A stretch of 64,000 nt of DNA from Atractiella rhizophila (Eukaryota), in assembly GCA_021432655.1 (NCBI GenBank), contig MU271334.1:1-64000 (forward strand), given 5' to 3'. Below, in pieces: positions 1,146 to 60,498 of this stretch. A program made the position numbers and the translations under genes. The notes under the pieces are model-generated. The model was not told the origin of the DNA, did no database searches, and saw only the letters and a program-made list of their open reading frames with translations. Position 1 is the stretch's first letter; each line of letters starts with the position of its first letter.

Positions 1146-3092
1146 TCAGACCTTTCGATCAGGCTTGATAACCTCCCACGTTCCACTCTCCTCTCCTTCT
1201 GCTGTGTCCAAAAGTGAAGAGTTACTTGACTTCCGCGTAAGTTTGGGCTCACTGACACCCAGATTATGTCGTGATATTGGAGCAGGGGGAGGGACATGAT
1301 CTTTCTTCACCCGTCGTGGCATGTTGCTCCGCAAGAAAGCAACATCCCACGGATTTGAGACGGCTGGATTCCGCGAGGAGAGCTCTTCGGCAGTAGGAAA
1401 ATAGGAAGAGATATCAACTCCATCCCACCATGCTTGCTGATCGTCACTTGGGGGTGGCACTAGAAATCAACTGTGAGAATCGAGATCATGTCCTCGGGGG
1501 GTTGGGAGCGTGCCATCAAATACCGCAAGATCCTTAAAGTCTTCTAGGTTATCGTACGAGTCTTCTATTCCTTGTGCTTTAGCTGCCAGAATAACAGATT
1601 GGTCTTGCTGCAACTTTGCGATAAGGGCTGCCTTCTTCTGAACATCAATCGTTCTCACGGAGGCCCTGAATTGGCCGTAAACTGCGAACAGGATGAACAT
1701 CACTCGTCAGACCGACAAACAGACATACCCGGTCGATGATCCGACTGGTAAAGCTTCGCCGTTGTGTACTTCCAAATGTCTAACTCACGACCTCGGTAAA
1801 ATATTCGGTCTGTCCAGGCTGGGATCCTTTGCTTCTCGCTGGTGTCATATACCTCTGTTCCCCTTCAAAACCTTGAATTGCAATCATAGAGGAAGTGCAA
1901 TGACTGACTGGTCATATTTGTATGTAGGACGAAAGGTAATCGGGGCCTCGGCATAGCCCGCAAAAACGTTACGCGTAGCCATAGATAGTCTCAACTGTTA
2001 AGAGCATTCATTGATGACTTTGCGGTGAGCTACTGGCGTACCTGGTCTCCTTGTAGCAAGCTGTCATAATCATCTGCTTCTGCCAGCATGCGAACTTCCT
2101 CGTTTTGCAGCGATATGCGATAGTTGAAGTCGCCCAGCCAAATTACATTGCTTCGACCACGAAGATCAGTTCGGTAGTTACAATACAAACGTAAGGCTTA
2201 CTCATGAGTGTCAATTCGACGTCCACGCTGGAATTTCAGCTCGCTTGAAATGGTGAAGTAGTCCCGGTTTCGCTCTTCCACAGCAGAATGTCCAGCGGCG
2301 AAGTGCGCAGTGATGAAGCAGAACGACGTATCACGAAAGTCAAGGCGAATGGCCACCGCTCCTTTATTCCCTGTGACACCTTTGAAGCCAGTCTACACGC
2401 ATTTCGGTTAACTTGCGAGAGGATTAATATCGGCACCATTACCTTTTTCGTTGTGGCCTCAACGTTGCGAATGTCGTGTGCCACCGAACTCTTCACCAGA
2501 ATGATCAGAGCCGTTCCCACAAGTTGTTCCGAACGAAGGATGAAGTATGAGCTCTTGTGTTCTTCACGCTCCGCCAAATTCTGCATGATGAATTGTTCCC
2601 ATCGTCGCCTGTTCTGTCATCAGTTCCGCCGTTGATGAAGGGACGGGAATTGCATGCTTTTTTTCCGGGTCAGTAGCCATGATCTGTTGGGGTGAGAGTT
2701 CAACGATCTCCTGAAAACCTAATACCAAGAGCTCGGGCTCGATTGATGGGTCTGGAAAGAAGAAGGGGAGAAGAGATTCCGAGCCTGGTGGCCGGCCGCA
2801 GAGATTGTAAGTTCCCACCCAAAGAGTCAAATCCTGTGAGGTAGAATACTCGGCTATTCGTTCAGCGACAAGATCACGAAGGTAGTCGTGATGAGGATCG
2901 AAGATGAGGACCTTTTGCTGGTCGGGAAGATTACCCTGAAAGGCTCTTTCAGCAGGCGTAACTTGAAAGTGATCAGCGTACGAGCAGAGCATCTATCGCC
3001 ATTTGCTTATTCCCGTCGACGAAGTTGCTGATGTACATTCTTCCCACTCGCTTTGTTGCATCGGAAAGGAAGCCTGGTCGAAATTGAATTCT
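1146..3092 (-). CDS. Synaptojanin-like inositol polyphosphate 5-phosphatase (Inp51/52/53 family), 3' part only; 5' part lost at the gap
   Basis: End of Sac1 region (GRMYISNFVDGNKQMAIDALL), then 5-phosphatase motifs WVGTYNL, LVLGFQEIVELSPQQI, SEQLVG, GNKGAVAIR, WLGDFNYR, PTYKYD, SDHRPV-like; multi-exon. Confidence 0.9.
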
Positions 3093-3268
3093 NNNNNNNN
3101 NNNNNNNNNNNNNNNNNNNNNNNNNNNNNNNNNNNNNNNNNNNNNNNNNNNNNNNNNNNNNNNNNNNNNNNNNNNNNNNNNNNNNNNNNNNNNNNNNNNN
3201 NNNNNNNNNNNNNNNNNNNNNNNNNNNNNNNNNNNNNNNNNNNNNNNNNNNNNNNNNNNNNNNNNNNN
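3093..3268. other. Assembly gap (176 N)
   Basis: Run of N. Confidence 1.
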
Positions 3269-5975
3269 ACTCAGCTTCACCTACCTTACGACTAAGAAGA
3301 GCCACGACCTACGAATCCATCACCAGCTCGACTATCTACCTCCGCACTTACCTCCAGCCTCCTACAACCCGTTGTTCTTCTATCTCCCGACAAACCCCTA
3401 CCAGTTCCAGCCCCTACCACGCAATGCAGTAAGGAGGAAACGATACTAGAACACCCTAACGCAAACAGAGCAACCTTCTCGAAACACTTCAGAAGTCGAC
3501 TTCTCCGCCTACGGAGTTACTCCGATGGAAAGACCCCTTCCAACTGGCACGCTAGAGAATGTCTCTCTCTCTCTCTAACCGACACAGATACTGTCGAGTT
3601 CCAAAGAGTAAAGTAGGGACGTGAGATTTGCTAGGTCTTGGAGAGTTCAAGAAACAGCTTTTCAAATGTACACACACACAACAGCTTCAGGCAAGTTCCA
3701 CCTAATGGAAAGTGGCGTCAGCGAAAATAACGAAGTAAAAGAATCACGGCTTCGTTACCTCTATGTCAAACAATTTATAACTCGAACAAGAAGATAAGTA
3801 TGTAACACTTACCTTCGCCACGGAAACAAGGTGGTAATCGAGCTTTGAAAGGGTTCGAGTGAAGCACATCCGCATGAGACAAGAAACGAGACAAATTTCG
3901 CAGGTACAGGTTGAAGAACTAGGCGAAAGAGACGCATATATAGACACAAAGAACTCCTTTGAAAAGTTAATCCTGGAGTGTACTTGTGAAAGCGTCTCTT
4001 ACAAGACAGTGATTGCTAGAACGCCGTCTATATAAGGAACGAGAACACTGTTCACGACGTCGAAACTCAAGGGTGTAGCTTGGGTAAAGGGCTTAGCAGC
4101 GGCAGCTGAAGCAGACAAACTGTAGACGCTTGACCCTACCGGAAAGAAGGAAACTGGTTAGCTGGCTGAGCCTAATGCTGCTGCCAGTTGGAAGTTGCCG
4201 TCTTGTAGGGACGAGATCGAACTCCTTCTATAACTGGTTACCGGTTAAAATAAAGAGGAGGCGCAAGCTGGACAGTTGAGCTGACCTTCGCGCTTAGGAC
4301 TCCGTGAGATTCAGTTTAGTAGTGCGTCTACTCTTTGTGTAAGAAGGACTACCTCTCCTAGCCTGACCACGCTCTCCCCCTTGTGCCACCTGTTATGCTG
4401 CTCTCTAAAAACACCTTAAAAAAGAACCAACTATCAAACAACTCCAAATCCCTACCTGACCTCTGCCGATTCTTCCTCCGCAAGCTGTTCAGACCTAAAA
4501 ACCATACATGTAGTCAGACGTAGTAAAAGACCGATTGAACCCTAGTCTAAGAATAGTAAGTTCCTAAGACGAGGCAAAAGCTATAGTTACACCCTCCGTG
4601 TCGTACGTGATAGTCAGAGTATAGAGCTGATAGGATGTTTGCTCGTCCCTGTTCCATGTTGAGGTCTCCCCAACTGCACGCAATCAGTGCTGAGACTTGT
4701 TTGGAAGCGATTACCTCTCCCGTCCTGCTACCATTACATCGTTTAAAACAACTTTGTCTTTGGGATAAGTCTTGTGGCCTGGATACGAACTCAATACAAG
4801 TTCCGCTCAGCAAGGACCTGGTTACAGTTGCGTGGACTAGACTGAGGTATCAATCCCCTTCACACGGACATAAAACCCATCCGTAGGAAAGGGAGTCTTC
4901 CTAGGGGGAGTCTTAGGGAGGTCCTTGTTTCGCGAGGTCCGGAACCTCCCCAACAACCCCCACCTGAACGGCCGAACCCAGGTCGTTTACACGCGTAGTG
5001 AGCCGGCGAGTAACGACCAGCCTCTCGGAAGCTCGTTGTGAAGTACCTGGAAGAGCTTTGGATGCTTGCCCAAGTGCCTAACTTAGACGAGCCCTGAGCC
5101 CCTTCCACTTCCACGTGAGAGCTTGCGCATAGTTCTTGTATAGGAGCTGAAGTAGGCATTAGCTCGACGTTTGCAAGTGCTGCTTCTCTTCTGACTAGGA
5201 TGACCAACCGTAGTTATTGCAACGTCTACTACGAGGTCATAGGGAGTGCGTGAAACTAAAAGTAAGGGCACACGCGAGACCTCCCTACCTTGTTCACGCT
5301 CTAGTCGACTACTCGGGACTCAAAGGCCAGTTCCTGCTCTCGCTTTACATACCCATGACGAATCGCTCGCCCGACGGCCCGCTCCTCCTGAATCACTACT
5401 TCGTTGCCCCTCACAAAGCTTCGTTAACGAACCTAACCAAGCGGAAAAGTAAAGGAAAGAACAACGGGACGAGTTACTAGTGCATCAGAACTGTCTTGTT
5501 TGCAGCATGTCCTATACGAAAGCGCCGTTCGAGACCTCGTAAAGGAGTAGTTGACGTTAGGCTGCACCCGAATGAGGCTACGCTAGACCAGTTGCGTAGC
5601 GTGTAACACCCGGCTTCACTCGCTGTAAAAACAAGCACTACTTTGAGTAGAGTGACTGTAAAGATCTTACCTCTGCGTGAAAGAGCGTAGATACGACCAT
5701 GCCCCCGGGATTTATGGTCGAAGTGGGCCTGCCCTTTTTTCTGCGAACCTCCAGTCAAATAGAAAAGCACCGAGCCACAGTACAGCCTCCGAGATGACAC
5801 GGAGAAAAGAAGCACGGATGGGGAAGCAGACCTGAGGCGCCCTTGACTCCTGCGGCGGTAAAGAGAACTTGAGAGCAGTAAGAGTGTGAGGGGAGAAGAG
5901 GGTGAGACTGCGCGGCTGAGCATGGGAGTACAGGGAGAGCGACATTCTGCTGTCACAGCGGAAGGGACGTGTCAG
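3269..5975. mobile_element. Degenerate, compositionally distinct island (ApT-poor, TpA-rich), probably a decayed repeat or mobile element of unidentified class
   Basis: Only short ORFs (up to ~160 aa) with no recognisable domain; strong dinucleotide skew with a sharp boundary near 5970-6000; abuts a gap. No transposase/RT motif, LTR or TIR recognised. Confidence 0.35.
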
Positions 5976-6323: not shown

Positions 6324-8170
6324 ATGTCTGTCCACGGAATTCAGCTCTTCAGCTTTCTTGCTACCGACGGGTCAGGGACGCAGAGAATTCTTAGCCGTCA
6401 CAAGCTGGTCGTGCTTGTGCCCCAACATCATCCGTTAGGAGATCAAGAGCTTCGCTTCCAATGCCCCTTTCGAACCTGCACCTCACGGCTGTCGCTGTCC
6501 CAACATACAAAATTGCGCGACCATTTCAAGAAATGTCATCCATCGCAGAAGGTTACCTTTTTCGACGCTCGCAGAGTAGGGAAGGCATATTTTGAGTACG
6601 CTTGCTCTCCTTATCTACTTGCTGATTCACTCGTCGTTGAAGCGAGGATGGCATCGAATACGAGCTTGGAGACAATGATTCCTTCTATCGCGTCGATGGA
6701 ATCATCGGGGAAAAACGATTCACCATCGAAACCGTCGAAGAAGAAGAGGAAACTCTTCCCTGGTATGTCTCTCTGCTCTCATTCTCTCTCCCTCTGAACA
6801 ATAGTAACTGTCGTGTAGGGACTTCTCTCGTTTAGAAGGTGCCGTTATACGCCCCATCCCATCGTCCTCGGCGCCGTCCTCGCGCTCGCCTTCACCAATT
6901 CCTCCACCTTCCCCTGAAGAGTTTCAAGGATCCGACTACGAGGATCTTTCGGAAGACACCTCCTCTGAGTCCTCTGAGTCCTCTGCCTCCTTATCTTCCC
7001 ATCCCGTTGCAGATGAGCTCGACCCGTTCGATCGTTCCACTATATCGTCTGGAGAAGAATCGTCATCCGAATCTTCAGAAGAGGCTGGTTCTATCCAGAA
7101 GTCCCCAAAGAAGGAGTCAACTCCCTTAGAGATCCTAACCGCTGCGAATGGCGGGCCTCTATTCCGTCCACCGTCACCATCGCCAGATGCAGATGATGAA
7201 ACAGTTCTTGAATCCACCTTGGTCAAGAATGAAAGCGACCACTCCGACGCCGAATTCCCCCCAGTCGACGAGCAGGCCAATCCCGGAAAGGTCTTCTACC
7301 TTACGCTTTCCAACTCCTCTGGCAAAATTCTTCGTCATAAGCAGACGGCTCAGCGACTAGTCCACGTCTGCTCTGACCAATCCGGTCGACCGGTCGACTT
7401 CTCGTGCCCAATTTCGAGCTGTCGTTTTGTTGCGACGAGGATATATAAGGCGAGAATTCATCTTGAAAATGAGCATGCGAACGTGCTGAGCATCATTGCT
7501 CATCCCCAGAGTGGCACGGACCTATACTTTCGGGTGTTTGTTTTCCTAGTAGCATTCTCCTCTCCAACTTACTGAAAGCATTTTTGCAGGTTTCCGGATG
7601 GTGTCCGAAGGCAATTGGATTATGAAAAGAGAAGATTTTGGATGGTAGACGGAGAAGAGAAGCAATATCGCATCGAGTCGGAGTCGGAGGAGAAGGAACC
7701 CCTGATATGGTGAGCAATTCCTTGTGCACAAGTCCATGAACGCCGCGCTCAAAAACCATATGGATAGGGATGGATGGGGAAGTAGGATCTTGGCTGACAA
7801 GGGCACAGTGGGCGCTGTTCGCCGGTTGAAGCGTCAACGTCAGTCAACCGCCTCATCCAATTCCTCCATGCAGCCTTCCCTATCACCCCAACGGCACACC
7901 CCTGCTCCACCTGACCAACGTACAGTGGCCGACCTGGAGGCGTTATCACGGACCGTAGCACGTCTCCGGAAAGAAGAAGAGGAACTTTTCCTGAAGGCTT
8001 TTCCCTATCAGGTCAAGCTTCTGGAAATTCAAATTGCGGAGCAAAAGGAGATTCAACAGCAACTGCTGAAGAAACTCTATCCGAAAAAGGACGAAGAAGA
8101 TCGACAGTGGCGCGAAGCACTCAAGCAATTGAGAGCCCGTCGTTCCAATAATGCGCCTGCAGAAAATTGA
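6324..8170 (+). CDS. Zn-finger module family gene A: two C2H2-containing EPLxW modules, acidic Ser/Pro linker, C-terminal coiled coil
   Basis: FQCPFRTC...LRDHFKKCH and FSCPISSC...RIHLENEH; spliced tails ...VDGIIGEKRFTIETVEEEEETLPW and ...MVDGEEKQYRIESESEEKEPLIW; TATA ~6185; coiled coil ~7930-8140. Confidence 0.7.
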
Positions 8171-8664
8171 TGTCGATTAATGGCAATACGAGCCAGTTTT
8201 TTTCTTGTCGAGAGTTACTCCTGTTGCAGTAATTCTTTCTACTCTCACTTTGGCGTGTTGTCTTCCTAAAGACTCCAAACTTGACAGTCTGAACAATTTT
8301 CAGTTTGCATTTTTATTGTAAAAAAATTAGTATACAGTAGTGTAACATAAAAACTATAGGGCTACTTGATTTGTATTATGAAAGATGACTGTTTTCTTGG
8401 GCAATTTCGAGCTTGTCATCTGCCCACTCGTCTATCTGAAGGCTCCACTTAATTCCCCAATCCAATTCCTTCGGGCAGTGCACATTTCAAAGCTCCATCG
8501 CAGTTGGCCATCGCGTCAATGAAGAACGTGGAGAGGACGCCTAGGTACCCAATCGAACGACCCAGTCAACGAAGATCGAATGAAGCACCACGGCAGAACG
8601 AACATTTCCGAGAAGCTTGAAATGGATTCAAGCTTCAAGTGCATTCCAGTATGGAAAGAAAGAA

Positions 8665-8826
8665 CAACATCCACGCCAACGCCTTGCAAGGGCGGTAATC
8701 ATTGATGCAAGAACGCAGAATCGTGTTCGCACGAAAATAACATGGTGTGGAACCCAGAATACACACCACAAAATCGGTTTGTTAACTGATTACAGGCAAT
8801 CCCATCATTAATCCTCCGAAGGTCAC
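8665..8826 (-). pseudogene. Decayed, 3'-truncated fourth copy of the putative Pol III ncRNA gene, including its upstream module
   Basis: Reverse complement reads ttcggaggattaat...aaaccgattttgtggtgtgtattctgggttc...ttcgtgcgaacacgattctgcgttcttgcatcaatgattaccgcc, aligning to 459-602. TATA and A box are mutated; the hairpin, B box and T6 are absent. Confidence 0.65.
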
Positions 8827-9102
8827 CTCAAGCGAGAGCGATTGTAATAAGCAACGCAGGCTGAGAGCTGAACTATGCAGTGTTGCTTCTACGATGATAT
8901 TAGTTTACCGTATTTTGTTACTGTAACTACTTGGACTGAAAGAGGAAGTAAAATGTGAGATTGTCACATGAGCCTCTGTCTTAATACTTCGCTTACGAGT
9001 CCTTTCAGAGAAGAGAAAGATGTCAGGTTGAATTGACAAAAGAGAAGCAAAGGGGAAAGAATATCAATGGCTGGGTTTGTTTGGTTGTAGTTGTCATGGG
9101 TG

Positions 9103-9212
9103 AAAAAAGAGACGAGACGGTGCTCCGAACCCAGGACTCGTTGGGGCCCCCGAGGACTGGCGAACGGCTTCCGAGTCGTCTACCACTGAGCCAAGAACGC
9201 AGAATGGTGCAT
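9103..9212 (-). ncRNA. Putative Pol III structured ncRNA, copy 2
   Basis: Exact reverse complement of copy 3 over the whole unit; A6 at 9103-9108 is the terminator. Confidence 0.65.
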
Positions 9213-10264
9213 CGTGTAAAATATACTGCAGAACCATCTATATATACCACAAAAATTGGTTTGTTTGTGCCTGTTTACACTGATTTACATTAGCCACGCG
9301 GTCGACGGTCGATTAATCTTCCGAATTCAACCATCCAGCCAAGCGTCCAGAGTCCAGAGTAATGTAACGTTGCTAAACACACTCCTGTGAGTAAATAGCG
9401 TGTAGCGCTAATCGGCGTCCTCTTTCTCGTTGCTTTCAGCGAAAACTCTATGTAAATTACTTTGGATTAGCTAGACCTACTCTCTGCCATACATGTGGAT
9501 ATCTTTTTTAAGAAATATAAACGAGAAACAACTACTAAGCGACTGGTCTGTTAGGAATGAAGGGAATCGGGCAAAAATTAAAGGGTGAAAGAGAATGGAA
9601 GAGGAGATCGGAGCGAGACCGTGCGAAAACCATGCGATGGTGGAGTCAATGGAAAGGAGTCCCGTCCATCACCCGCACCTTCAGCCTAACATTCACCTAA
9701 ATCAACTGCCTTAAAACCCCCCACCATACTCTGATTAGAGCGCAATGGATGTGGAATAGTCAATCGACGGAGAATATGTGCATGAAACACGGCGGGTAAA
9801 TTTGGATTACAAGCATGCCAATACTCATCCAGGTGGACTCGACCTGGTGTAAGAGTCGGAAGATGTGCAGTCAATCACCCGACACTCTCGTTGACTTTGT
9901 CAGGCTTACTATAATTATAACCACGAAATCCAAAGGGATGACGAGGTGGAAATAAGAAGCAGTTAGACCACCAGGAGTGGGATGAATAGATAGAAGTATT
10001 CGAAGAAGCGACTAGTGGATGGAGAGCGTTTTCGTTCTCCCAAAGACAAGGCTCTGCCTTCAGTTTACCAAGATAACATAGAATTCTGTACATAAAGATG
10101 TACGACAACAGACGACAAAACAAAAATGCCAAATAAGATGGACACGGGTCTGAACTTCGAAATATTACTAGACATCACTTGTAAGGCCTTGTCATCTCAA
10201 GGGAGATTTGACTCTCTTAGACCCTCATCAGTTTATTGCTCAACAAATGACCCTTCACTTACAA

Positions 10265-12972
10265 TCATACGATCGTCCAGTCCGACATCACCAAATCGAT
10301 TGTCAGTCCGCGTTTTCGTAGATCCATTTGAAGTTTCCGAGCTGTTGCTTGTTCCTGAGCTAAGGTTTCGTTAAGGTGAGTCAACCGTTGCCCCATGACT
10401 AGGCGGTTCTGGGATGGGGTAGCAAAGACATCGACTGGAAGATGACTACATCCATCTAGGACGTATTTGCTGCGATTCATTGATTTTCTGAGATCCTCCT
10501 TCTCTTGCACAAGCTTATCGCAGGCTGACACCTGGGCAAGCGTGAGAGGGATCTGGGGAGAGGCGATGACTGCGTCGTAGAGGTTACAAAGTAGGTAGGG
10601 TTCTGGGAATATTCACTCACTCCGCTTTTTTACCGGCTGGCGATTTTCCTGTTTTCCCAAATCCAAAATCGTCGTAGAGATCGACGTGTGCTTCCCAAAT
10701 GTTTCAACAGCTCCACCGCATGTCAGCGCTTTATTGTTGGGATATGACGGACAACTGACATTTAAACGCTTTCAGTAGTTGCCCTTCTTTTCTCTCCTTT
10801 CTATTTCTCTCTAGGCTTGGCAAGCTTGGCAAGCTCAACCCCCTCTCAAGAAGTGGTGCATCAACGATATCAGTTGACCAATCTTTGAGTTCATGCGATC
10901 TGTTCCCAGGTGCGTTCAGTAAAATGTCGCCCCAGTCCGCCCTAGTTTGGCACGACTCTGTATCAGTCTTCATTCATGAATGGAAAGAACGCAACGGACC
11001 ACGGGAGGGGTTCCTGTGCTTCCACATCCGTTTCTTCCTCGTACATATCTTCTTCGGAGTCATCTGATCTCCAATACCTCTGCTTATTCGTATCGAACAA
11101 GTAGGACTTCTTGTCGCGGCTTTCCTCAAAGGCGTCAATCGTTCTGTCTACAAGATCGACGCAGAAGATGGGACGCACTCTTGTAAGCCTTCTAAAACAG
11201 GACTAGGGGCTTCCACAAATACGTCAAAGAGCGCTGCGTGTCTTTTTTTGAAGTGCCGCCGAATGTCACTAAGAGCATCGAATCGATCATTATCAAGTTT
11301 CCCGCACTCGCCAGTTGGGCATACGAATCGCAATGGAAGATCGGTATTCCTATCGACGTATGTGCCGAAGTAAACTTGACGACGACGGGAAGTCTTGTGT
11401 CGGAGGAACTGACCGGTCTCGCTCGATGCATAGGCAAGGACGAAGATGAAAGGATGTGAAAATGGAGCCCTTTGTGTCACGACATGACCCGTGATGTCAG
11501 TACCTTGTTGCCCCGAGATTTCTGGTTTCAATGTGGCGTCACTCTGAGTATTCGTAGAAATGTCGACTGGTGCATCCACTAGACGAGAGAGGCATGACGA
11601 TCTTTCTCCGGTTTGAAATCTCCTGGCAGATAGAGTGTTGGCAGGAAGAAGACTTGCTTGCGCCGACAGCGGGTCGCGGTTAGATTCGACTATTGAGAGG
11701 TTGTATTGGAGGGAAGATTGACTCGCTCTCGGTGCTTTCCGTGAAATATAATTTGAGGGTGAGGGGTGTGAGAAGGTGGATCTGCGAATAGGACTGGGTG
11801 TAACGGATCCCCTTTCCCCGTTCGCAAGCTCCGCCGCTGTTGTCCCAAAGGCTAAGTTGGCATTCGCAGGAGTTGTGACCGCGGATCTTAATATCCCATT
11901 AGGAGCAGCGAGTGCGGTTCCCGACTTTGCTGCTTGAAGGGATGTGTCCGATGTCGATCGCCGCCTCGTTTTATCTCCTCTGGGTAGTGAGTTAGTTTCG
12001 ACAGTCGTGTGACGGGCAGGGGTTAGGCAGATATCCAGCAGCTGGAACCTGGCAAACTCGTTCAGGACGGTAGGCACAAAGGGGAAAGACATACCAGTCC
12101 GGCTGTACAAATTTGGCAGCATTTGGTTCCACAAATTTACGAGGATCGACCTTTCCGATGCCTCTCCAAAACGACGATTCATCGTGTTCGTATGTCTCAT
12201 GCACACTGTCCGTAACCCCGCCTATCACGTCAGTTCTCTAAATCCAAAGAAGGGGCAGCAAACAGAATTGTCTGCGTGTTGGAAAAGGAAGATTCCTCCC
12301 TGCTGCGAAAAACAAGAAAGGGGATAGGATTTGGAGGAAAACGACGTACTCGGTGATGCATCCATGTCCTCCGATATTTCGCATTACATTCAACTCCTGC
12401 GAGTGCCGCGATTGGAAATGCAACTCTACAGCTGCGATCCTCAGGATCGGTGACACATTTTCGCACTGGACGAATGGACATATGAACGGATACTCTAGGT
12501 GTTCACTCCAGTCGGAAGAATGAATTGCGATAAGTGGTCGGAGAAGATTCCTCGAAAGAAGCGGCACCCTCGCATTCGCGTTCTTCTTGAAGATTAGAAA
12601 GCGAAGCTTTGGGGCGACCGGCGTGGAGACGGGGAACACTGGTTCGCTTCGACTGGCAGGGAGGGAATTGCCTATGTTGTCTTCTCCTTGATTCTTTTGG
12701 CATACAGAAAGACGGCGAGAGTAGAGATGTTTGTTCCCTAATAGTAGCTCTCTTGATTGGGACGAGATCGATGGGTCTCGGGTGGACGATCGGGATGCAT
12801 CCTTGTCATCAACACTCGCTGTTGGCAAGGAGCTGCCCACGCGGAGAGATCAACATTGGCATTACAAAGCACAAAGCACGAGGGAAAGAAGGACCAACTT
12901 TCGCGTTTCGCAGTTAGTCCGCGTCCCATTCTGGTTAGCGTTACTGAAGGAATCCTCGTCCTGACTGCCCAT
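10265..12972 (-). CDS. Zn-finger module family gene B: two modules plus C-terminal coiled coil
   Basis: FICPFVQC...ELHFQSRH with tail ...FVQPDW; AYASSETGQFLRHKTSRRRQVY...FVCPTGEC...IRRHFKKRH with tail ...YEEETDVEAQEPLPW; coiled-coil exons 10265-10531; start inferred at ATG 12972. Confidence 0.7.
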
Positions 12973-13425
12973 ATCGGTTACAAAGAAGGCTAGATGGTTA
13001 TACCAATGATACGTCTACTAGGAGGAAGTAACAAGAAAGGCCGATAGATCAAACCACGAAAAGACTGAAAAAACGACTGAACGTTGACTGGGAACTGTTT
13101 GAAACGGCTGTTTGGGGGGAGAAAATGGAGAAGAGGGTCTTTTTATACGCGCCATGTTGTCTGCGTTGTGGCGTGGGAAAGTGACGTGACTCTATACAAT
13201 TGATACTCTGCAACGTAATTGCTAGATAACTCCAAGCATAGCTTCATTATTATCCAATGTCAGACTATATGGCACCCAGTGAGCGAAATGAGGGTTTTTG
13301 AACTGAACATTGATAAAAAGAGATCCCACAGTGGTTTATACAGAAAACAGATACAAACATGTAAATAGGTATAAACAAACCAATTTTGTGGTATATATAG
13401 ATGGTTCTGCAGTATATTTTACACG

Positions 13426-13535
13426 ATGCACCATTCTGCGTTCTTGGCTCAGTGGTAGACGACTCGGAAGCCGTTCGCCAGTCCTCGGGGGCCCCAACGA
13501 GTCCTGGGTTCGGAGCACCGTCTCGTCTCTTTTTT
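13426..13535 (+). ncRNA. Putative Pol III structured ncRNA, copy 3
   Basis: TATA 13392-13399; A box TGGCTCAGTGG 13445-13455; GGTTCGGAGC 13507-13516; T6 13530-13535; hairpin 13457-13528. Confidence 0.65.
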
Positions 13536-14329
13536 CACCCATGACAACTACAACCAAACAAATTGGCAGTCCTTTTATTTTCTGTCTTTCCTTTCAAAGT
13601 TACATGCTATACGGCTGTAAAATGACTTCAATCAATACAAGCGCCTTAGGTTTTATGTGGGACGATACACAAGTTGCTTGGTGATTGATATCAAGTGGAG
13701 AATAGCTGCAAACGATGCCTTTTTCAACACCCGTCAATACCACTATTATTATGGAAGATATAATGTATTTATCACAGTAAGCGGTACAGAAAACAATACA
13801 GGAGAGGAAGAGAATGAACTTAGAGAAGAAACGCAGAGGCTTCAGAAGTCTATACAACATCTGATATGTGCTGCTGCTTTGATCAGACATACAATACTCA
13901 AATCGTCTGGACACCAATCTTTCTCATCTTAATATAGGCTGGAAGGGAAGCGCGAGCGAAATTGCATCTCTGTCCTCTACTCTTCCAGCGAGCGCTGAGG
14001 AGTAACAAACCAGACGCTCAAACACCGTGATGGTCTACAGAAGCAGAGCAAAATCTCGGCCTTCACGTAACGTTTCATCGTCGACTTCACCTAATACCTA
14101 TGCTTTGCCCCTCATATCTACTGTCCATTTCATCTGTCCTTAAGAAACAATGGATGAAGTTCGATGAAATCGCATTTCTAATCTTTGCTGTTGCAGGGTT
14201 GTTGCTCCCGATCTCCCGATCACTTGGCAATTGGCTCAATCGATCTGCTTGCATATCGACACGTTCATCTCCCTCTCCTGAGCTATCTCTTCGCTGAGCA
14301 GGTAACATACTCTTCCTAACACGCACACC

Positions 14330-15690
14330 ATGTCCTTCGTCCCTCTCCACTGTGGCGCTCAACAGTACGACTGGGGGAAGCTAGGTCCCTCTTCCAAGGT
14401 CGCACAATACGCTTCAGCATCCACTGGGCTCACCATCTCTTCATCTACGCCTTATGCTGAGCTGTGGATGGGCACCCACCCATCTCTCCCTTCGAAAGTG
14501 GCTACGACTGGTGAGAGCTTGAAGGAATATCTGGGCAAGAATCCGAAGTACCTGGGAGGCGGATTGAAGGATTTACCGTTCTTGTTCAAGGTGTTGAGCA
14601 TCGGCAAAGCTCTCAGTATTCAGGCTCATCCGGATAAGACGTTGGGAAAGAAGTTGCATGCTGAGCAGCCGAATATCTACAAAGATCCAAACCACAAGGT
14701 ATGCGTTTCTCCTCTCTACTTGGTCTTTGTACTGATGCTGACGATGGAACAGCCAGAAATGGCCATTGCCCTCACCCCTTTCTCCGCCTTCTGCGGCTTC
14801 CGACCACTCTCCCAAATCTCCTCCTTCCTCCAGACCGTTCGCGAGTTCTCCTCTCTCGCCAAACACTCCAAAGACAACTTCATCTCCGTTGCCTCCAACA
14901 CCTCATCCAGCGCCGCCGAACAGAAAGCGGCGTTGAAGGAGCTTTTTGGGGAGATCATGTCCGCTCCCGCTCAACAATTCATGCCAGCCATCAGGTGGTT
15001 GGTCGAGAGGTTGGAGAGCGAAGGAGTGCGGGTGAAGGAGGGAGAAGAGCCGAAGACGGAAGAAGAATTGGTACTCAGGTTAAATGAACAGTTTCCGGAT
15101 GACATTGGAATCCTTTGCACTTTCTTGCTCAATTGGGTGCATCTGAAACCTGGAGAAGCAATCTTCCTCAAAGCTAATGAGCCTCATGCTTATTTATCTG
15201 GAGGTGCGTTTTCCTTTCTCACCCTCAGAGCTCACGGACTCTAGCTAAGTGATGGATGTATAATATAGATATCATCGAATGCATGGCCACCTCCGACTCC
15301 GTCATCCGCGCTGGGCTGACTCCGAAACTACGAGACGTCCCCGTCCTCCTCTCCATGTTGACCTATACCACCCTTCCACCAGCCAGCCAACTCCTCTCTC
15401 CTACCTCTCCCTCCTTCGCAAAGAACGGTCACTCCAAGCTCTACGATCCTCCGATCGACGAGTTCAGCGTTGTAGCGGTTACATTGAGGAAGGGAGAAGA
15501 GGAGAAACATGATGGAGTGGAGGGACCAAGTGTGATTATTGTTACCGCGGGTGGAGGGGAGATCAAAGGGCAGAAGACGAAAGAGGGAGATGTATGGTTC
15601 GTAGCTGCAGGGGAAGAAGTGCATTTCAAAGCTGGAGAGAAGCTGGAGCTCTATAGAGCTTTCGTTGTCGGCTTCAAAGAGGACGAGTAG
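14330..15690 (+). CDS. PMI40: Mannose-6-phosphate isomerase (class I)
   Basis: QYDWGK, PYAELWMGTHPS, LPFLFKVLSIGKALSIQAHPDK, YKDPNHK|PEMAIAL, ANEPHAYLSG, ECMATSD; two introns. Confidence 0.96.
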
Positions 15691-15975
15691 ATTGACGGTC
15701 AAATATCGTGGTTCAAAACACAGGAGGATGCAATAAAAGGAAAATGATTGAATGCTTACATTGTTCTCAATTCGTGCAAATGCTCAATGGCTCAATGCTG
15801 TCAGTACTTTCAGGATGTGGATACAGTAAAAGACAATAGATCATTCTTCAAATTATCGCCGTATCAGTTTAAAGCAGAATACTGCAGAACGCATCACTTT
15901 TAATCTCCATCTTCCTAATTCCTGAATTGATAAATGTCTCAGTAGCTCAGCAAGCGAAACTCAAACTCTCAGATC

Positions 15976-18975
15976 TCACAAAGGATTTGGAGCCGGTGAG
16001 ACAGCATCTTCCCTCCCTGCCAACCTCCTGTGCAAATCCCTAATAGTTCCATCTCTGACCCTAACCTCATCCTCCAACCTCGTCCTCTCCCTCTCCCACC
16101 CGTCCCTCTCGCCTTCCAAAGCCTTCAACTGCTCAGCCAGTTCCTCATTTCTCTGCCTCAGTTCTGCCAGCTCTGACTCTTGCGCGGCAGTCGAAACTGT
16201 AACCCGCCCATTAACAACTCTTTGGGGGATAGAGGAAAGGGACGTACATCGTTTCCTTTTCAGTGGTGGCAGACTCGATGTTCCCTCCCCTTGATCATAC
16301 ATTATTGGGCTCCCGTTCGCATCCACCATTTGCGGAACCTGTCCGGGAATGAGAGAAGGCGGCCTCTTCCTCTTTGGCATCATATCGGCGGGAAGGCGGT
16401 CGCGACCTTTCATGTCTTCGTTGGTCCAGTTTTGCCTACCCGCGTCATTCCACGCCTTAGCTGGCGAAGCATAGAAGTGTGCTAAACCTCACCATACCAA
16501 CGGTTCACGCGCTTCTTCTTCATTCTCGATCTCGTACATGTCTTCCTTTCCCCCACTTTTGACCTGCCAAAATACCTCTCCAGCACGGAAATCAAACACA
16601 TTGTTATCGCGACTGCCGCGGGCAGCAACACATCAGACTTTTTCTGGTCAAAGAGTCGAGAAGGCCACGCACTCCTTCAATCCAAGTTGTGGCGGATGCC
16701 TTGTCTCCTGCAACACGTCAAACAAATCGTGATGCTTGCCCCTAAAGTGGTGTCGAAGGAGCGGTATCCTCTCCCACGTCGCCTTGCTACACCTATGAAT
16801 GGGGCAGGTCAACCTCAGCACCTGGTTCTCAGGAACCGTTCCTCCAATGTAGACCAGACGTTTGCGAGTCGTTCGGTGTCGAAGGAGGTGTTGGCCAGTG
16901 TTGTCGGATGCGTAAGCACAGAAAAATATTTCCGGCGTCGCAGTCGGAAGCATTGGTTGGGAAGACGCGGAGAGTTGGGCTTGTGATGGGGTGTGAGGGG
17001 TGTGTGGATGGTTGGGATGGGTATGAGGTGCGGTAGAAGCAGAGGGGTAGGCGTCGGAAAGATTCATGGACATCGAGGGGTCGATGTGAGACTCATCATA
17101 AGGGTAGGTTTCTGTACCTGATATCAGCGACTTGGGCGACCAATGGAGAGAAAGAGGACGGCGGAACAGAGAGACGTACCAATCTGACCCAAAGCCATCT
17201 GTACCGTTCCATCTGACAAGCCTTTCTGTGCTGCCCCTCCACCCACATCCACCTTCTGTTCCCTCCCCTCATTGACACCGAGCTCCATGCGCACGTCGCT
17301 TTCTCCCTCTTCCCCTTCATCCTGCACCACCAAAATATCCTCTCCTTCTCTCATCACCACATCCCCGTCTCCATTCCTGTTCCGATCCCCGCTGCCACTC
17401 TGCTGCAGCCTCATTTGTCCGCGAGACGGCTGAGAGAATTCGGGATCAATGACGGAGTCTTCCATAGGCATGGACACATCCATCGATGTGTTTCCCAACA
17501 CTTCATCTTCGTACGCCTTGATCGCTGCAGGATTGATGGCTGTTGGTGCATCCCTGGAGATTTTGGGGCGATCGATGCGTTCGTTCGTTGTATGCCAGTT
17601 GAGCCTTTATCCCACCGAACAGAGCTGTGGTTAGTCGACGGATCACTCGGCAGATAAATGGGCTGAAAGCGACGGCGAAGCGGTACGTACCACGGTAGCG
17701 GGATCTCTGCCTCCTCGTCCGTCTCCTCCCTGTATATCTCCTCATCAAAACTCCCATCCCTCCTCCAAAACCCATCAAGAGCTGTATAAGTCTTTCCATC
17801 CACGCCAGTGACTGCGCTGTTGGCTCCACGTCCTCTCTTGAAGATTTCGAAAATGTCCCTATGCTCCGCCTCAAAGTGATCGACGGCTGTATGTCGATAA
17901 CTCAACAGCTTTGGTGGCTTTCCTTGCTCCTTACAAGCCGGACAGAAACGTTGATCCTTTCCAGCGCTTTTGAATTCGAAGAGATGAGGACGATGAGGCG
18001 ATTGGTGAATATGGAACGCAGACGACGAGACGGAGGAGTGCGAGCGAGCATGGCGCGGAAGAGGAGCATCTCGGTCTGGCTGACGTTCGAATGAACATTC
18101 GTCTGCGGTTGGTGCGCGCCAGTCATCACCACTTGTCCTCCATGGGCAGGTGCTGCTCCTTGACTTTGTCGCGGCGTCCCAACGACTCCAGACACAGAAA
18201 CAGGGACGTCGACTCCTCCGCCTCCACCTTCAATCCCAATATAGATCGCTTCCTCCGCATCCAGTCCTACTGTGGCGTACCCCGTCGAGTCTGAGGGTCC
18301 AATAACGAGGCTGTCATCCATTTGACCCTGTATCGGCTGAGACGGTCCAGAGTCGTCTGGCTGGAACTCGAACACTGTGTTTTCCCTGGTCCAACCTTCC
18401 TCAGCTCGAAGCGTTGGAACGAAATGAAGAACGCACCATGGAAGTGGCTCAGCTGCTTGTTCTTCTGTTTCTGGCACATAAAGCTCGGTGTCATAGGTAC
18501 CATCGACTCGTGCAAAGCATTCTCGCTCCTTGCCAAAGACGTAGGAGTGCTTGTCGGTCCTTTCCACCCAAAGAACAAAACTCAGCATCGTCTTTAACGC
18601 CACCACCTCCTAAGACCTCAGGGGAAAAATCACATACCCCGTCATAAGCTCTGCCCTGCCATTTGCCCTACTCCTACTGAAGAACTCCCAAGGTCCATCG
18701 GCATGTCTTTTCAAAAAGTGACTTTTGATATTCCCGTTGGTCCTGAACGTAAGATGGGTTCCACAACCGAAGGGACAGTTGAACGATATGGAACCAGAGA
18801 GATGTTTAGCCTTGAGAGGGACGTAGACTACGAGTTTGCCTTCTTTGGTTCTCAGTCTGGTCTCGCCCTGTTTGACATCGTGAGTAAATAATACGGGATC
18901 AGGAGGTTAGTGTGAGGTGCTGCTTACGGAAACGTCGGCGGACATGTACCAGAAGACTACCTGATTGCGTAGCAT
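15976..18975 (-). CDS. Zn-finger module family gene C: three modules plus C-terminal coiled coil; apparent frameshift in module 2; start uncertain
   Basis: NCPFGC...KSHFLKRH / ...EEQAAEPLPW; FCPAC...VDHFEAEH / ...EEAEIPLPW; AYASDNTGQHLLRHRTTRKRLVY...TCPIHRC...RHHFRGKH / ...EEEAREPLVW; coiled coil ELAELRQRNEELAEQLKALE... Confidence 0.7.
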
Positions 18976-20125
18976 CCTGATACTCCTGGCAGAAGATTCT
19001 CCTGCCGAGTTCTAAGGAATATTTTGAGAGAAGAAGCAGCAATAGACACAGAAGGGAAGCAAGAGGGCCGGCTAGAAGTATCACTAACCGTCTGTAGGGT
19101 TAGGGTCGATCAATATTCTTTCGCTGATCTCCACAGTGAGGAAGGGGGCGGAGATATTCTAGACACCATTGAAGAACTGTTCCATCCTAGCTTGTGAAAT
19201 CCTTCAAGATATCATATTTACACTTGGCGAATTCGCGAAGATTTGGGAGAGATGATTTGATGTTCGGTCCACTTACTTCACTCCTTCTGTCTATGCTCTG
19301 TAGATGAAGGCACTTTCTTACCTCAGCGTTGTGATATTTGAAGACAACCTTGTCCCGGCTGTGGGGAGCGTCAGGAGTTGTGTGTGCACTACGTTCACGA
19401 GTGGCATCCCGTCCAAGATGAAACAAGAGGAAGACGCGTTCCACTCCTGTCCATAATTGATCGAAAGGAAAGCGTTTTATTTTTCGAAAATGAATGGAAG
19501 TTGACGGAAGGAAATGAAAGTGCGGCATCTTTCCTTTCTACTCCGAAGCTTTTATTCTCTCCCCTTGTGACACTAGGCTGACCTACATTGCTTCCAATTT
19601 CTGCGCTCCTAACAATACTTCAGTCAGGGTATCCTGCCTATTCTCAGTCCACACACAATCGTGGTACGTGAACACGCAACATCCGCTTCCCGCTCGGCGG
19701 ACTCGGGCTCGGATGTTTGCAGGATTTCTTTGGGTGATCCAAATACCACTGAGTCTGCCAGCGAGTGTGCGAGTGTGCTTTGAGACGTTACGACATCACA
19801 AAATGATCATCCTCATCCCATCGCTGTGTGGCATCAGAGGCGCGGGTACTTCCACGCGTCTTGACGATATCCGAAATGCGCCAAGAACCCGGTTGATAAT
19901 TAGGCTGCGTCGACCATGCGGTTGCTGGGGTATTTCAATCCTCCAGCAACTGATCAATTTGATAAGAGGGATTACAATTCTATCCACAGCATGAAGCTTC
20001 TGAAGCTACGCTAGCCGCGTCGCGTGATAAATAAAGCAAGCAACCGTTCCTTTCCACCCCAAGTTCCACCTTTCGCGAACGGCCCCCCTCATTCTTTTTG
20101 GTGTTGGGTATACTCTCCTTACAAA

Positions 20126-59699: not shown

Positions 59700-60031
59700 C
59701 CTGACAATCACAGCAGTTTCGAAGTTCAAATGGTGAAGACTGAGTGCCTCAACTGAAGCCTTGGGCTTCTTTTGTTTTATCTGATCAGGAAAAACCCTCT
59801 GCCCGTCACGGCTCAACCTCCAACAGGCGGGTCAGATGAGCCGCAGCGGTGGCAGTATTCCTGACGCCCATGGCCTCTTCATGCATTTCAACGGAGGCTG
59901 TCGCTGTTGTAGGCTGTAAAGTTCGTTTACAGGATAAAGATGGATGGAAATTAGCATGGATGTGGAAAACGACAAGTGCAACGTAAATGTACTGTACATA
60001 GTTAACACCGCCGGTGTCAACAATAAGCAAT

Positions 60032-60114
60032 GGTCGCTTATTTCAGTTGGTTAGAATGTGGACCTAATAAAAGTTCACAGTCCAAGGTCGGCGGTTCGAG
60101 CCCGCCAGTGACCA
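60032..60114 (+). tRNA. tRNA-Ile(AAT) with ~9-nt intron (60070-60078)
   Basis: Acceptor GGTCGCT/AGTGACC, anticodon stem TGGAC/GTCCA with CT-AAT-A loop, T arm GGCGG-TTCGAGC-CCGCC, discriminator A, downstream T6. Confidence 0.88.
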
Positions 60115-60498
60115 TCTTTTTGGCCGTTCTTTGCTTAAGTGCATATTTTGGTACTTTCAGCTTCTCTTTTGACTTTTGACAGCGGCTTAATATCGCTCTC
60201 AGCATCAGCATTGACTAGAACTTTTCCAGGACAGGTGGGAACGAGCAATCCTAAGTAATCTCGATGCACATATCCGTTGCTTTTCCAGTGTTCGTGAAAG
60301 TCTTGCTTATGTAATGCATACAACACCACGACACTCAACTCCACGCTAGAACCAGCTCTGCCCTGCTTTGAGAGGTTTCTTGAGGTATTCACGAGTTCTT
60401 GTAATCCATTGTTGCACCTCCAAGACGCTGTATGATCCTATCTATCTCAGCTGCAACAATCCAGCTCATCCTTCACCCAGGATCACCACAAGCATAAC

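Follow-up and report, generated by a model that had tools for sequence, protein, structure and literature searches.

The 64,000-nucleotide (nt) window analysed here, namely the forward strand of contig MU271334.1 (C155, positions 1 to 64,000) in the 51-Mb eukaryotic assembly of Atractiella rhizophila, carries three neighbouring genes, A, B and C, which encode seven copies of a zinc-finger module. An earlier note, made from the sequence alone, had regarded these copies as an exon-bounded domain of what was probably a lineage-specific nucleic-acid-binding family that dimerises through a coiled coil. The proteins matching the three genes in the protein collection are named hypothetical proteins of Atractiella rhizophila. 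The features of the locus are as follows (the bits are the leave-one-out scores explained below; the coiled-coil calls come from a simple heptad scan).

6324..8170, forward strand: gene A, 543 amino acids (aa), open frame, identical to NCBI protein P0071
6324-6595, 6643-6762, 6819-7535, 7590-7709 and 7768-8170, forward strand: exons of gene A, with four introns, all of phase 2
6333..6819, forward strand: module A1, aa 4-131, C-x4-C-x14-H-x4-H, introns 6596-6642 and 6763-6818, 66.8 bits
7282..7768, forward strand: module A2, aa 286-410, C-x4-C-x12-H-x4-H, introns 7536-7589 and 7710-7767, 59.5 bits
7913..8158, forward strand: aa 459-540 of A, predicted to form a coiled coil
10265..12972, reverse strand: gene B, 744 aa, open frame with a presumed start ATG at 12972, RNA in run X21 only
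12898-12833, 12349-12206, 12094-12049, 11178-11120 and 10999-10942, reverse strand: phase-2 introns of B (RNA joints or contig pieces, X21)
10759-10711 and 10620-10570, reverse strand: phase-1 introns of B (RNA joints or contig pieces, X21)
12048..12615, reverse strand: module B1, aa 98-223, last exon 111 nt, 25.1 bits
10941..11456, reverse strand: module B2, aa 421-553, C-x4-C-x16-H-x4-H, last exon 120 nt, 86.6 bits
10268..10537, reverse strand: putative interrupted coiled-coil-like tail of B, aa 655-744
15976..18975, reverse strand: gene C, giving 829 aa once a break is bridged, presumed start ATG at 18975 (RNA joints, open frame)
18637-18560, 18436-18386, 17690-17605, 16672-16613 and 16492-16436, reverse strand: phase-2 introns of C (RNA)
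18927-18868 (phase 0), 17179-17112 (phase 1) and 16247-16197 (phase 1), reverse strand: other introns of C (RNA)
18385..18969, reverse strand: module C1, aa 3-134, C-x3-C-x14-H-x4-H, last exon 123 nt, 63.6 bits
17604..18075, reverse strand: module C2, aa 238-366, C-x2-C-x18-H-x4-H, without the inner intron and crossing a frameshift, 55.5 bits
17945..17947, reverse strand: one base missing in this assembly, in a short homopolymer just before the first Cys of C2 (RNA)
16435..16935, reverse strand: module C3, aa 567-694, C-x4-C-x13-H-x4-H, last exon 120 nt, 83.5 bits
16021..16196, reverse strand: predicted coiled coil of C, aa 757-815, with many sub-threshold coiled-coil Pfam matches

Sequence and homology of the seven modules

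Each module was scored with a hidden Markov model (HMM) built from the other six, and compared with 500 shuffles. All seven are homologous by this test, their scores (25-87 bits) being reached by none of the 500 shuffles (maximum 8.7 bits), which upholds the shared pattern described in the earlier note. The spliced copies are 125-133 aa long, instead of the 110-120 aa estimated there, and 18-43% identical in pairs; B1 is the most diverged and has the longest branch in the tree. The residues C, P, C, H, H, D and W are invariant in 7/7 modules, and 40 columns spread across the full module length pass a loose conservation filter. The finger has the spacing C-x2-4-C-x12-18-H-x4-H, with about 40 conserved residues before it and 60 after it, and the domain is larger than a classical finger. 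In all seven modules the part ending at the second His has a net charge of +4 to +8 and the last 40 aa one of −3 to −11, and conserved Arg/Lys columns lie 22-30 residues ahead of the first Cys. No eighth copy was found in the window with the HMM.

Protein A consists, in this order, of module A1, an acidic Ser/Pro linker, module A2, a basic patch and the presumed coiled coil. The linkers are probably disordered, because of their composition (50-68% S/P/T/G/E/D/Q and 3-5% aromatics). A, B and C each have a basic patch resembling a nuclear localisation signal just before a helical heptad-rich tail, and in C two KRKR patches (aa 715 and 753) precede the coil. The claim that all three proteins end in a coiled coil is clear for C and plausible for A, but the coil of B is interrupted.

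Splicing and exon structure

RNA contigs from four runs (X21, X2, X22 and X1 among the labels), which attest the presence of spliced RNA and not its level, were aligned to positions 9300-19300, that is to genes B and C. The TG|GT in the final Trp codon is present at all seven donors named earlier (6763, 7710, 12094, 10999, 18436, 17690 and 16492), and all of them read GTnnG, as compared with 6.2% of the TGG sites in the window. The RNA shows the joints of four of the five end donors of B and C, and for the fifth (18436-18386) it shows loose ends on both sides, in X21. In B, where only run X21 has them, the joints are 10942-10999, 11120-11178 and 12049-12094; in C they are 16436-16492, 16613-16672, 17605-17690 and 18560-18637, each of these being present in 2 to 4 runs. 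Two pieces of a single RNA contig, 113 letters apart, indicate the B intron 12206-12349, which is also present in NCBI P0002, a protein comprising residues 175-744 of B. In all, RNA supports the 9/9 module introns of B and C, seven of them by the joints just listed, and joints for seven introns of gene C occur in 2-4 of the four runs. Genes B and C are expressed, since spliced RNA contigs exist for both. As for gene A, its four GT-AG introns yield 543 aa, letter for letter P0071, and the allelic contig C334 retains all four splice pairs. This evidence consists of an NCBI protein and an allelic contig, and an annotation pipeline is not an independent proof; the splicing of A is less firmly shown than that of B and C.

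The module introns are all of phase 2 (13/13), a count of homologous and thus not of independent events, while the seven other introns of A, B and C are of phase 1 (four), phase 0 (one) and phase 2 (one, at B25), with one at the 3' end of B unplaced. The second phase-2 intron reported for six modules does occur in six of the seven, but it stands 18-22 residues past the second His and not just after it; C2 lacks it, as contig X22 record 20 spans 17690-18063 unspliced. The last exon of these six copies measures 120 nt (four copies), 111 nt or 123 nt, and is 2-2 symmetric in 6/6, while the finger exon is 2-2 in 4/7 (A2, B1, B2 and C2). The domain is exon-bounded at its C end, where the conserved block meets the intron, but in most copies its N end falls well inside an exon, behind 100-200 residues of low complexity. 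The upstream intron is 73-197 residues ahead of the module in A2, B1, B2 and C2, and in C1 a phase-0 intron lies within the predicted first strand. A Trp three residues beyond the end intron (W-x-x-W) is kept in 4/7 modules (A2, B2, C2 and C3). A symmetric class 2-2 exon module has introns at both domain boundaries, which is not the case here, and introns of the same phase at both ends of the duplicated unit, which is the case. What was duplicated is best described as a pair of 2-2 exons together with a free linker. At the end of B, the RNA joint 10216-10263, with one letter between its two sides, lies at the stop codon and 3' untranslated region (UTR); it may change the last codons of B, or it may represent an intron in the UTR.

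The break in gene C is confined to this assembly, where the missing base may be a sequencing error or a private allele of the sequenced strain. First, the extra base at 17945-17947 is carried by three of the four RNA runs (X21, X2 and X22). Second, the two halves of C2 are in different frames of the assembly, and placing an X at the break makes gene C one frame of 829 aa. Third, C2 read through scores 55.2 bits over HMM positions 5-133, as compared with 45.4 bits over 63-133 for the genomic frame. Fourth, the variants at 18004 and 17998 in the upstream frame and at 17939 in the downstream frame come out as silent only if the frame shifts between them. NCBI has C as two pieces, P0072, which ends at the stop made by the shift, and P0001, which begins at residue 521; with gene C split at the missing base, the public annotation holds 4/7 modules whole. 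P0001 also lacks 20 residues ahead of the last basic patch (16260-16330), which both the genome and an RNA contig hold; X1 record 3 covers 16248-16434 ungapped, and no GT-AG intron fits this gap. An allelic haplotig of gene A (L004, G000:C334:1-2890) has its own NCBI model, P0003, in which the finger half of A1 was missed, and no second copy of B or C was found in the assembly. Between the two A alleles there are 14 silent and 12 replacing changes and one deleted codon, none of them at an invariant position.

Relatives of the module and comparison with known fingers

A search of 1.84 billion representative proteins with the module profile yielded 66 proteins at E<=0.001, three of which, all from Atractiella, match over the full length. 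In the other 63, the best stretch is centred on the finger and the scores are summed over several fingers; on the module flanks alone, these finger-type matches score at most 2.1 and 10.7 bits. Within the databases searched, full-length relatives are thus restricted to Atractiella, in keeping with the lineage restriction first proposed, and 'lineage-specific' is to be understood as applying to these collections, where close relatives of the species may be unsequenced. In the genome, single-protein queries, whose counts are lower bounds, found no further module copy except the allele of A.

There is no full-length Pfam match either, as the earlier note had anticipated. The nearest family, zf-C2H2_aberr (PF17017), scores 20.8 bits on A, under the cut-off of 27, over profile positions 26-91 of 172; its matches extend over no more than positions 23-91. 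It matches 3/11 alignment rows at E<=1, its profile also matches unrelated CP..C fingers, and the A, B and C loci are not among the matches of a genome search with this family. We conclude that the module is undescribed in the literature and databases searched. Judging from the comparisons presented here it belongs to no described family, and we regard it as a variation on the C2H2 finger rather than as a system of a new kind.

With the classical C2H2 fingers (PF00096; TFIIIA, YY1), whose spacing is C-x2,4-C-x3-hydrophobic-x8-H-x3,5-H, the module shares the two Cys and two His (7/7), the hydrophobic residue ahead of the first Cys, a helix over the His pair in both structural models, and weak sequence matches to YY1 (E 0.007), TFIIIA and CTCF. 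It differs from them in having 12-18 residues from Cys to His (12 in A2 only), H-x4-H, and flanks (about 40 residues before and 60 after the finger) matched by no outside protein. PF00096 itself has no match in the 16 exon pieces, 11 alignment rows and 4 database proteins scanned, and tandem fingers with TGEKP-type linkers were seen in 0/7 modules, the fingers being more than 200 residues apart. The GAGA factor and SWI5 finger 1 have the same one finger per domain and upstream basic region, a likeness of layout and not of homology; their matches to the module are sub-threshold (E 0.39-0.67) and limited to the finger core. The GAGA factor, as described in 10.1101/2021.10.21.465351, combines a single C2H2 finger and two basic regions upstream of it with disordered parts and a domain for multimerisation, a layout like that of A, B and C. 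Unlike in GAGA and SWI5, the extension of the module is predicted to form a beta sheet onto which an acidic tail folds back, the modules are repeated, and the oligomerising element would be a coil.

Another comparison is offered by unnamed extended-finger repeats of about 77 aa from Mucorales (Circinella, Phascolomyces, Zychaea; P0013, P0031 and P0055). They are also fungal and lineage-restricted, with the same CP..C...H-x4-H and a predicted hairpin at the same distance past the last His, whereas they are shorter, in direct tandem, and without the N-terminal strands or the EPLxW tail. The post-His extension gave an hhalign score of 11.1 at the same offset, and 3/100 column shuffles scored as high, so that the Mucorales repeat may be either an analogue or very distant kin of the module. 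Members of this family are P0013, P0016, P0023, P0030, P0031, P0038, P0040, P0055, P0060, P0065 and P0070; those looked up are from Mucorales, and at E<=0.001 Pfam gives nothing for P0013 and P0016. We also observed metagenomic proteins (P0004-P0006, P0008, P0009, P0012, P0014, P0019, P0025, P0029 and P0051) with tandem CPYNC..H...H repeats of about 69 aa, some of them with signal-like N ends.

Proposed function, history and significance

AlphaFold runs on two copies, A2 (allele sequence) and C3, which are 29% identical, gave the same order of strands and helices; both models rest on a shared 11-row alignment of fragments. The A2 model has a predicted local distance difference test (pLDDT) score of 72 and a predicted template modelling score of 0.65, its residues 41-70 being at 85-89 and its tail 111-125 at 81-88, and the C3 model has a pLDDT of 60.7. 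A helix covers the His pair in both zinc-free models, and Foldseek lists fingers at E 2-4 only.

Giving the idea about an even chance, we propose that A, B and C are young, locally triplicated nuclear regulators, predicted to bind DNA or chromatin in a multivalent manner. Each module would be one compact zinc-binding domain comprising three N-terminal strands with a basic hairpin, the C2H2 finger (Cys-Pro..Cys, and a helix with His-Phe-x3-His), more strands, and an acidic E-P-L-x-W tail folding back. The fingers would be single, 100-200 disordered residues apart, and, being so far from one another, would not read DNA as a tandem array. Instead, each module would grip DNA or chromatin by its finger and basic extension, like the single finger of the GAGA factor, and the presence of two or three modules per chain, together with coil-driven oligomerisation, would provide avidity. 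Nucleic-acid binding is predicted from the charge pattern only, and both DNA as the ligand and dimerisation are our guess. The sub-threshold sequence neighbours YY1, TFIIIA, SWI5 and GAGA are DNA-binding fingers. Furthermore, RNA variants in B and C (the 40 best-supported rows out of 196, of which 33 are coding in B or C, each classified singly) comprise nine silent and no replacing changes in the modules, and 16 silent and eight replacing changes outside them, which we count in favour of this proposal. That the fold is an undescribed beta-wrapped finger without any link to SUZ12 seems to us a little short of an even bet.

Several observations weigh against the DNA- or chromatin-binding proposal. 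First, the classical finger pattern fits 0/7 modules, and the acidic tail brings the whole modules near neutral. Second, residues 71-110 of the A2 model, which like the other rests on an alignment of fragments, have a pLDDT of 53-55. Third, the changes between the A alleles are six silent and five replacing in the modules, and seven and six in the linker, so that constraint is no stronger in the modules than in the linker. Fourth, homology of the C-terminal tails is not clear, since 279 (A-B), 99 (B-C) and 6 (A-C) of 500 shuffles score as high. Fifth, the branch of the tree that unites the last modules, A2, B2 and C3, has a support of only 50/38. Sixth, the single lead from structure is to a zinc domain that docks proteins and not to a DNA reader.

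This lead is consistent with a possible but distinctly weaker candidate, in which the module is a docking domain like the Zn domain of SUZ12 and A, B and C are scaffolds gathering partners. The SUZ12 Zn domain holds JARID2 or EPOP in Polycomb repressive complex 2 (PRC2), and in the strong form of this alternative A, B and C would be accessory subunits of a PRC2 without recognisable SUZ12. The zinc-finger domain of SUZ12/EMF2 corresponds to Pfam Zn_SUZ12 (PF23320) and to PDB 6C23 chain A. With PF23320 (cut-off 28 bits), the modules of A, B and C are unlisted at E<=1 and are not among the three genome candidates. The VEFS box has no match in P0071, P0002, P0003 and P0001, nor in the rest of C, scanned as exon pieces and P0072, and VEFS-Box has no match in the genome. 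An E(z)-like gene is represented by L043 and L044 (G000:C151:44256 and C225:5925), with CXC and SET matches just under the cut-off. It is very doubtful that a SUZ12-Zn-like fold was freed from SUZ12, multiplied as an exon pair and fused to a coil, to become a targeting or docking part of PRC2; if true, SUZ12 would have been replaced independently for a second time, the other case being Bnd1/Ccc1 of Cryptococcus, here in a basidiomycete in which the E(z)-like gene is kept.

The isolated fingers, long linkers and basic N half would also suit RNA binding. In that case the modules would act like the widely spaced single fingers (H-x5-H) of JAZ/ZFR-type proteins, with the linkers spanning structured RNA, and zf-C2H2_jaz and zf-met are indeed among the low Atlas neighbours (0.85-0.87, 11% of members). 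However, Atlas scores under 0.9 are leads only, there is no Pfam match to zf-C2H2_jaz or zf-met, and the modules have H-x4-H, which makes this explanation unlikely.

Returning to DNA- or chromatin-binding regulators, their history accords with the expansion by internal and local duplication that the earlier note had put forward. The repeat unit would have grown by duplicating a phase-2/phase-2 exon pair (the linker-plus-finger exon and the 120-nt exon). A two-module-plus-coil ancestor would then have been copied twice locally, before a later C1/C2 duplication gave C its third module and C2 lost its intron. Such an ancestor fits because of the identities between B2 and C3 (43%), C1 and C2 (33%) and A1 and C1 (31%), and because B and C have in common a phase-1 intron behind the basic patch. 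The tree has the same split, but at the low support of 50/38.

The H-x4-H fingers, the species-restricted cluster and a 186-nt inverted repeat (9076-9261 / 13377-13562) could also suggest a domesticated BED-like DNA-binding domain of a transposon, the 98% inverted repeat around B representing the element ends. However, the BED aromatic motif before the Cys pair occurs in 0/7 modules, no zf-BED or transposase match was found, the module family is at three loci only, and the repeat belongs to a dispersed, tRNA-like family, most of whose 11 genome matches lie away from A, B and C. We therefore hold this origin to be the least probable explanation of all, and very improbable in itself. The repeat, about 190 nt long, occurs in the window at 9076-9266, 13370-13570, 512-707 and 8640-8800, and also on contigs C334, C159, C1924, C1910 and C1873 (77-100% identity over the 11 genome matches). 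It has a TATA-like start, what we take to be tRNA-like A and B boxes, and a T run; it has no ARAGORN or Rfam match, and its folding is not unusual (z 0.33). It is probably a tRNA-derived Pol III repeat, and the two 98% inverted copies flanking gene B could have flipped B. The other features noticed in the window are:

2236-3600, reverse strand: phosphatase-family gene, with Exo_endo_phos2 matches at 2239-2992, crossing the N gap 3093-3268
14306-15690, forward strand: phosphomannose isomerase gene, between B and C, two introns seen in RNA
from 20015, forward strand: gene subtilisin-like by eye, of which two scanned pieces matched nothing in Pfam
60031-60116, forward strand: tRNA-Tyr called by ARAGORN, its anticodon ATA being unusual; the intron may be misplaced, or this may be a pseudogene

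The reach of these findings is small, with one species so far. They nevertheless offer a clean, RNA-supported case of a presumably folded domain outside Pfam that would have grown in a fungus by symmetric phase-2 exon duplication, and one of the seven copies, C2, can be seen to have lost an intron. Work that surveys the C2H2 genes of fungi by way of PF00096 (e.g. PMC12295980) cannot see this module. With its 125 residues, the module is an easy structural target, and it would represent a further way of making one finger a stand-alone domain.

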